DNA from: Escherichia coli
Lineage (GTDB): Bacteria > Pseudomonadota > Gammaproteobacteria > Enterobacterales > Enterobacteriaceae
NCBI RefSeq assembly: GCF_044324785.1
Contig: NZ_CP172127.1
Length of the DNA: 64,000 nucleotides
Reading direction: 5' to 3' (one strand)
The notes below the pieces were generated by a model that worked only from the letters and a program-made list of their open reading frames with translations, had not been told where the DNA came from and did no database searches. Every line of letters begins with the position of its first letter. The stretch's first letter is position 1. Below, piece after piece: positions 60,990 to 61,145 of this stretch. Position numbers and translations under genes: made by a program.

Positions 60990-60994
60990 TCTTT

Positions 60995-61011
60995 AAAGCC
61001 CTGCGGGCTTT
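60995..61011 (+). terminator. Rho-independent terminator after tnpA (aaagccc tgc gggcttt + T)
   Basis: 7-bp stem, 3-nt loop, T-run; read from sequence. Confidence 0.6.
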
Positions 61012-61022
61012 TCGCCTTATAT

Positions 61023-61043
61023 CCCCGCCCGCATTGGGCGAGG
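61023..61043. repeat. Subterminal imperfect hairpin at the tnpA-proximal IS end (ccccgccc gcatt gggcgagg)
   Basis: Same stem sequence and mismatch position as the hairpin at 59307..59326. Confidence 0.7.
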
Positions 61044-61145
61044 GTTTACGGCGTTTTTCGCTAAGCAATGACTACCCTGTTTCGCTTGCATCTCCGGTGA
61101 GTTTTGCCACCCTTATAAGATGTTTCAACCAGAAAGAACAATAAC

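Follow-up and report, generated by a model that had tools for sequence, protein, structure and literature searches.

An ISEc46 insertion in the yebE-ptrB spacer of Escherichia coli separates a distal ptrB promoter from its start site and leaves the proximal promoter complete

What becomes of the promoters of a gene when an insertion sequence (IS) comes to lie 85 bp upstream of its start codon? The question is raised by a stretch of 64,000 nucleotides of Escherichia coli DNA (assembly GCF_044324785.1, contig NZ_CP172127.1; hereafter, the window), the last 6 kb of which are the E. coli yebG-yebF-yebE / ptrB / exoX region. Here, a copy of ISEc46 stands between yebE and ptrB, the gene of oligopeptidase B. 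The reading favored below, with rather more confidence than doubt, is that the insertion splits a distal ptrB promoter (P2) and spares the proximal one (P1), that ptrB is then transcribed from P1 alone and that hairpins in the element insulate the gene.

Boundaries of the Insertion

The features that define the insertion are the following:

59175..59297, + strand: native yebE-ptrB spacer moved upstream of the IS, 123 bp (alignment with the K-12 empty site)
59298..61060, - strand: ISEc46, IS200/IS605 family, IS605-type with divergent tnpA/tnpB, 1763 bp long, with the minus strand of the window as its top (active) strand
61146..63206, + strand: ptrB, oligopeptidase B / protease II, intact 686-aa open reading frame (ORF) (Pfam PF02897, PF00326)

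The 208-bp yebE-ptrB spacer of K-12 MG1655 served as the empty-site reference and was aligned globally with positions 59115..61205. Two aligned blocks were obtained, 59115..59297 and 61061..61205, with no base common across the break; the element therefore comprises 59298..61060, without target-site duplication. In the K-12 empty site, 59297 is joined directly to 61061, with zero repeated and zero missing bases. The initial annotation had placed the end of the IS near ptrB at 61053..61062, 85-95 bp before the gene. The actual end, 61060, falls within that range, and exactly 85 native bases (61061..61145) are kept before the ATG at 61146, a position that agrees with the RefSeq start in strain N3. 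The supposition that ptrB is cut off from most of its upstream spacer is likewise borne out, as 123 of the 208 bp are displaced. This is a real insertion and not a chance pattern: the junction is present in 400 of 5,426 genomes, and RefSeq annotates ISEc46 and TnpB.

Two Promoters of ptrB

Two promoters precede ptrB at the empty site, and the insertion treats them differently:

61086..61120, + strand: P1, proximal promoter, intact; transcription start site (TSS) A at 61120, 26-nt leader
61086..61113, + strand: P1 elements, -35 TTGCAT (61086..61091), 16-nt spacer, TG (61105..61106), -10 CACCCT (61108..61113)
59269..59297, + strand: P2, distal promoter elements, -35 TCGATA (59269..59274), 17-nt spacer, TG (59289..59290), -10 CATCAT (59292..59297)
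61067, + strand: P2 start site, 79-nt leader, 7 nt from the IS tip (PMC10469882 Table S5 via the EDL933 alignment)

The P1 start is known from K-12, where a ptrB TSS was mapped at 1926889 in mid-exponential phase after enrichment of primary transcripts, with 35 reads and a 26-nt 5' untranslated region (Kim et al. 2012, PMC3415461 supplementary file 2); the upstream sequence listed for it is GACTCCCC...CCCTTATAAGA (PMC3415461). Cappable-seq of the enterohemorrhagic strain EDL933, performed in triplicate under eight conditions (PMC10469882), gives two starts. Table S5 of that study lists, for EDL933 locus 13780, the distances '26, 79', next to 26 for K-12/RegulonDB and a difference of 0. EDL933_RS13780 is ptrB, and the RegulonDB 10.5 start for the gene is at 26 nt, as in the K-12 map and in EDL933. 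The EDL933 spacer is 208 bp long and aligns without indels to K-12 and to an IS-free version of the window, which allows its starts to be transferred to the window. No ptrB TSS was found in the supplements of PMC4782308, PMC11092163, PMC4681348, PMC4161252 and PMC10301672.

The P2 elements came from scanning the reconstructed empty site for promoters, blind to the 79-nt start of EDL933. The scan returned one 8/12 site, TCGATA-17-TGtCATCAT, whose -10 hexamer runs right up to the junction with the IS. From a -10 that ends at 59297, transcription is expected to begin 7 nt further on; this position is 79 nt from the ATG and coincides to the base with the mapped distal TSS. Hence, the insertion point lies between -7 and -6 of P2. 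The recognition elements are displaced by 1763 bp and now point into the right end (RE) of the IS. Before the old P2 start, the place of the -10 is taken by the IS bases TTTTCG, which are unlike a -10. From the displaced elements, a P2 transcript would be predicted to start near 59304, antisense to tnpB. The IS end is found at position -60 of P1, which keeps 59 bp of native upstream DNA. The earlier suspicion that the native ptrB promoter might be split or displaced thus holds for P2, split at -7/-6, and fails for P1, which lies wholly in the retained 85 bp.

Transcription from the Element toward ptrB

The transposase gene of the element reads toward ptrB, and two hairpins stand between them:

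60564..60989, + strand: tnpA, Y1 (HUH) transposase, 141 aa, TTG start, reading toward ptrB; same coding sequence (CDS) limits in RefSeq
60501..60529, + strand: promoter-like site toward tnpA, TTAACA-17-TATAAT with TG, 11/12 (consensus scan)
60995..61011, + strand: hairpin H1, AAAGCCC-TGC-GGGCTTT, 7-bp stem, followed by TCGCC (-8.5 kcal/mol)
61013..61058, + strand: hairpin H2, extended imperfect left-end (LE) hairpin (61013..61053), followed by TTTTT (61054..61058) (-22.5 kcal/mol)

As the promoter-like site of tnpA points to ptrB, H1 and H2 would be what insulates the gene. H1 starts 5 nt past the tnpA stop codon, and the T-run of H2 stops two bases short of the tip of the element. Together, the two fold at -31 kcal/mol (z=-2.43 vs. 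shuffled sequences). The core of H2 (61023..61044) is homologous to the RE hairpin and is kept in the Enterobacter and Serratia relatives of the element; judged by its sequence, it is primarily a transposase recognition structure. H2 probably also acts as an intrinsic terminator for tnpA transcripts. The initial annotation had proposed a tnpA terminator at 60995..61011. A hairpin does exist there, but it is the weaker of the two, the stronger barrier being 61013..61053. Its related claim, that read-through from tnpA into ptrB is probably limited, stands.

An activating effect, in which the IS increases ptrB expression or drives it anew, by read-through from the tnpA promoter, by P2 transcripts crossing the element or by a hybrid promoter at the LE, is highly improbable. 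The tnpA promoter-like site is a close match (11/12) aimed at ptrB, and the consensus scan called no + strand terminator inside the IS, both of which speak for such activation. However, transcripts from tnpA would have to pass H1 and then H2, with its -22.5 kcal/mol and U5. A P2 transcript would have to cross ~1.2 kb of antisense tnpB RNA that is not translated, and such RNA is typically acted on by Rho. On the + strand of 61000-61146, a promoter-like site was found neither at 9/12 or above nor in a permissive scan at 7/12 or above. An outward or hybrid promoter at the LE was set aside, there being no site at the tip and TTTTCG occupying the former -10 position of P2.

Transcription of ptrB in the IS-Bearing Lineage

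The course of events that best accounts for the locus can be proposed as follows. By single-strand 'peel and paste' transposition, ISEc46 would have entered the yebE-ptrB spacer 3' of a TTAG, giving no target duplication and placing its left end next to ptrB. The -35 and TG-extended -10 of P2, presumably active in the ancestor of the lineage, would thereby have been moved 1763 bp farther away and aimed into the RE, antisense to tnpB, where P2 may still fire. The old P2 start site would be left without a promoter and P1 would be untouched. Transcripts of the tnpA promoter directed toward ptrB would meet two hairpins, of which the second is strong and has a run of five U's behind it, at the tip of the element. 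In the IS-bearing lineage, ptrB would then be transcribed from P1 alone. The predicted change in ptrB mRNA is a loss of the contribution of P2 and of any site upstream of -60, with little or nothing gained from the IS.

Several points weigh against this reading. P2 is known from EDL933 only; the mid-exponential K-12 map (PMC3415461) and RegulonDB give the 26-nt start alone, and P2 may be minor or condition-specific. A peak of the RpoS holoenzyme obtained by SELEX lies in the spacer (PMC5493296) and is too coarse to be attributed to P1 or P2. The -10 of P1, CACCCT, is a poor match to the consensus, and the assignment of the P1 elements is approximate, the TSS itself being mapped. Concerning the hairpins, the consensus terminator scan called neither H1 nor H2 (+ strand, inside the IS), and the T-run of H2 is absent in the Serratia relative. 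Finally, a literature search found no transcript data for IS-bearing strains.

The first of these points also feeds the most serious alternative, which is possible, though clearly less probable than the favored reading: P1 would give essentially all transcription, P2 would be minor and the IS would be a tolerated passenger, neutral for ptrB. Besides the single start in the K-12 maps, this view is consistent with the fixation of the insertion in 400 genomes and with the retention of P1 and its 59 bp of native upstream DNA. Moreover, the ptrB ORF is intact. It differs from that of K-12 by 44 nt over 43 codons, of which 36 are changed synonymously and 7 not, and the gene is annotated as oligopeptidase B in 30 genomes among the matches listed. 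On the contrary, the second TSS of EDL933 is reproducible and passed the triplicate filter, and P2 has a well-formed TG-extended -10 at canonical spacing, which exceeds the usual noise. A loss of the contribution of P2 is preferred to neutrality.

The yebE 3' End and Neighboring Genes

The genes on both sides and a structure at the end of yebE complete the locus:

58515..59174, + strand: yebE CDS, DUF533/TerB-family inner membrane protein (ORF; Pfam PF04391, E=2.4e-44; RefSeq)
59183..59221, + strand: long hairpin beginning 8 nt past the yebE stop codon (ViennaRNA, 59180..59230 at -28.2 kcal/mol, both arms fully paired)
63203..63919, - strand: exoX

The hairpin is kept in K-12, EDL933, strain 7/2 and VCSW7, except for one loop base. 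It has no U-tract on either strand, and its sole match in Rfam is a spurious microRNA (E=0.46). Probably, it is a 3'-end structure of yebE.

These features bear on a third explanation, to which very little credit can be given: a mainly polar effect, with the IS breaking a native co-transcription of yebE and ptrB. The two genes do lie on the same strand, 208 bp apart, and the missing U-tract of the yebE hairpin would suit transcription continuing beyond it. However, ptrB has its own mapped start sites, the -28 kcal/mol hairpin likely ends or stabilizes the yebE transcript, and evidence for a yebE-ptrB transcript was not found.

Identity and Genes of the Element

The Y1 TnpA, the TnpB domains, the ends, the seamless insertion and the TTAG/TCAC motifs make the element a member of ISEc46. 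Its identity to copies labeled ISEc46 by RefSeq is 99.4-99.9%, and in near-identical genomes RefSeq names the two genes 'IS200/IS605-like element ISEc46 family transposase' and 'RNA-guided endonuclease InsQ/TnpB family protein'. In addition to tnpA, it carries:

59338..60507, - strand: tnpB, RNA-guided nuclease, 389 aa, full length (Pfam PF12323, HTH_OrfB_IS605; PF01385, OrfB_IS605; PF07282, Cas12f1-like_TNB)
60563..60536, - strand: promoter-like site toward tnpB, TTGATA-16-TAAAAT, 10/12 (consensus scan)
59278..59297, - strand: right-end flank, which would supply the TnpB omega-RNA guide (AUGAUGACAGGUAAUGGCGC), by analogy with ISDra2 and Geobacillus elements

TnpB matches the ISDra2 TnpB structures 8bf8, 8ex9 and 8exa (E=3.6e-74). 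In its GLDMG, VETL and HDRD motifs, the D, E and D, presumably the RuvC catalytic residues, are identical in the alignment to 9yyg. TnpA matches Pfam PF01797 (Y1_Tnp) with E=5.3e-39, covering profile positions 1-121 of 121, and its translation shows an HVH motif and a C-terminal Tyr (RSYF). The Y1 transposase of ISEc46 has been given as 102 aa, 'truncated in the N terminal' (PMC9956272). An ATG 39 codons downstream of the tnpA TTG would yield exactly 102 aa, and the truncation may be a matter of start placement in that study.

The two divergent promoter-like sites overlap in the 56-bp tnpB-tnpA spacer. This arrangement suggests face-to-face competition between the putative tnpA and tnpB promoters.

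A search of 58400..61400 against Rfam matched neither an omega-RNA nor any other true family. The putative omega-RNA region (59278..59470, minus strand), in which the RNA would overlap the RE and the 3' end of tnpB, gave a single-sequence fold with z=-1.29 vs. shuffles, which is not significant. In ISDra2 and Geobacillus elements, the omega-RNA guide is read from the RE flank (PMC8612924; bioRxiv 10.1101/2023.03.14.532601). By analogy, the guide of this copy would read from 59297 downwards, and the empty site (TTAG, then ATGATGACAGG...) would be a target of the element's own TnpB, favoring retention.

Ends, Target Site and Orientation

The ends were identified by comparing the flanks of five independent insertions of ISEc46 or close relatives: the window copy, E. 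coli L37 (in which the gene of an IclR-family regulator is split), plasmid pEF7-18-51_1, Enterobacter plasmid pUPC1 (88% identical) and a Serratia plasmid (83.5% identical).

61061..61064, - strand: target tetranucleotide and predicted TnpB target-adjacent motif (TAM), TTAG (CTAA on the + strand), host DNA outside the LE
59298..59337, - strand: RE, where the top strand finishes with TCAC, equal to GTGA on the + strand (59298..59301)
59307..59326, read on the + strand: RE subterminal hairpin, CCCCGCCC-TGTC-GGGCGAGG
61023..61044, read on the + strand: core of the LE subterminal hairpin, CCCCGCCC-GCATT-GGGCGAGGG (fold)

Directly outside the tnpA-side end, CTAA (window + strand) occurs in all five insertions, and the flanks at the opposite end (RE) are unrelated. 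The empty K-12 site has CTAA as well, which therefore belongs to the host target and not to the IS. On the minus strand, the element follows 5'-TTAG and has TCAC at its other end; the left end therefore adjoins ptrB. Both motifs of the window copy agree with those published for ISEc46 (LE cleavage TTAG, RE cleavage TCAC, TnpB of 389 aa; PMC9956272 Table S1). Terminal inverted repeats are absent, and similar imperfect subterminal hairpins are found on one strand at both ends. The opposite assignment, with the + strand active and the LE at 59298, was ruled out, as the flanks there are unrelated and CTAA is constant at the other end.

The orientation relative to replication can also be deduced. 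The GC skew of the + strand of the window is positive in 8/8 blocks of 8 kb (+0.043 overall), and ptrB lies on the minus strand of K-12 at 1.93 Mb, a position in the left replichore, given the places of oriC and the terminus. The + strand is the leading-strand sequence, and therefore the top strand of the IS (minus) is on the leading-strand template. The usual bias of the family, top strand on the lagging-strand template, is not seen here; it is a statistical bias and not a criterion of membership. The IS200/IS605 orientation bias was reportedly described by Ton-Hoang et al. in 2010, and the leading-strand-template orientation is said to disfavor excision. Such an orientation would fit the stability of the element. 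As a side observation, tnpB runs head-on to replication.

Prevalence and Age of the Insertion

A query of 120 nt across the LE-ptrB junction, with a match required over at least 80% of its length, was run against complete E. coli genomes. The junction is present in exactly 400 of the 5,426 (~7%), with one flank haplotype. A longer query of 2.2 kb, of which the IS makes up 80.1% of the length, matches 448 genomes at the 80% threshold, copies elsewhere included. Full-length ISEc46 occurs in 455 genomes, typically at a single place in each (median, one). With 400 of these 455 at the junction, the yebE-ptrB site holds the great majority of copies.

Over the 2.2 kb of the longer query, the carriers listed are 99.5-99.9% identical to the window. 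With the reconstructed empty site as the query, the best genomes are 98.7-99.0% identical over 798 nt of flanks. These figures fit one old insertion, inherited on one haplotype and without a recent revertant in the collection. The window copy of the IS is 99.9% identical to that of strain N3 and ~99.4-99.5% identical to many same-site copies, and the identity figures make the immediate flanks appear near-identical among carriers. The element seems to have gained or exchanged more differences than its own flanks.

A single base distinguishes the retained 85 bp of the window from the nearest empty-site genomes:

61093, + strand: T for C at P1 position -27 (spacer)

Most of the 400 carriers share the T with the window, and all empty-site genomes that were compared (K-12, EDL933, 7/2, VCSW7 and the sampled matches to the junction query) lack it. 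All sampled empty-site matches have a mismatch in 61061..61120, mostly one and, in one case, two. The C to T change may mark the lineage or be compensatory.

The prevalence gives the insertion its interest. A lineage marker of ~400 complete E. coli genomes is more than an insertion into plain spacer: it removes one mapped ptrB promoter at single-base precision and spares the other. It offers a clean natural experiment on the distal promoter of oligopeptidase B, and it provides a naturally occurring instance in which a host promoter points antisense into a TnpB/omega-RNA module. A stronger combined claim is quite unlikely, though less so than activation or polarity: that ~7% of E. coli would have lost a condition-specific P2, with ptrB regulated differently as a result, and that P2 would at the same time damp TnpB by transcription antisense to the omega-RNA and tnpB. 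If true, the rewiring of ptrB, the antisense P2 and the excision-disfavoring orientation could together explain the stable single copy and the lack of a revertant among close relatives.

Comparison with Known Systems

The element in the window is a copy of ISEc46 (ISfinder name; IS605 group of the IS200/IS605 family), alike in its 389-aa TnpB, Y1 TnpA, TTAG, TCAC and length of ~1.77 kb, without any structural difference. IS608 of Helicobacter pylori and ISDra2 of Deinococcus radiodurans are the models for 'peel and paste' transposition in the family and for TnpB with its omega-RNA. With these two, it shares the lack of inverted repeats and of target duplication, the subterminal hairpins on the same strand and a tetranucleotide at the LE; furthermore, the TnpB of ISDra2 is homologous to the one described here. 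The target differs, being TTAC or TTGAT in those elements and TTAG here. The gene order differs as well: tnpA and tnpB are divergent here, as in IS605 and IS606, and not in tandem. The hairpins lie 16 nt (LE) and 9 nt (RE) from the ends, next to 19 (LE) and 10 (RE) in IS608.

A polar IS200 insertion, hisD984, is known in Salmonella, and IS200 carries an internal terminator hairpin. The present case resembles polar IS200-type insertions in that an IS in a regulatory spacer parts a promoter from its gene and in that hairpins at the ends block transcription, the blocking being predicted here. It differs in that only one of two promoters is cut, between -10 and +1, and the proximal one is complete. 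Outward or hybrid promoters arise from the ends of IS1, IS2, IS5 and IS10 (pOUT). The distance of the IS end from the gene start, ~60-90 bp, is similar in those systems; no such promoter is detectable at this LE, and a terminator-like hairpin is found instead.

In the literature, ISEc46 is merely listed in resistance-genomics papers, and a link to ptrB was not found. An IS has here cut one promoter of a pair that precedes a non-essential protease gene; the case is routine, though tidy, and its significance is modest. No new mechanism is implied: promoter disruption by IS elements, the ends of IS200/IS605 and the TTAG of ISEc46 have already been described, and the novelty lies in this instance.

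Relatives of ISEc46 at Other Sites

A second recurrent chromosomal site of ISEc46 is represented by E. coli L37 (NZ_CP034589.1, L003 1501..3263). There, the split IclR-family regulator gene lies between MFS transporter/yfaU and yfaY, and the element adjoins CTAA(G). The split gene occurs in at least 5 full-length ISEc46 records among the matches listed. The L37-type site probably accounts for many of the ~55 genomes with ISEc46 away from yebE-ptrB.

Plasmids hold mainly partial forms. Altogether, 905 plasmid records match, and partial relatives are found in several hundred of them; most of these come from Salmonella and E. coli, and a large part are conjugative. Among the matches listed, derivatives with tnpB and the RE (region 59298..60545, 79-99% identical) but without tnpA or the LE are prominent and have the appearance of non-autonomous TnpB elements. 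The terminal 38 nt of the RE with its hairpin (59298..59335) are also found alone, 100% identical and unannotated, on many E. coli plasmids; these lone copies may be solo right-end remnants or mini-elements.

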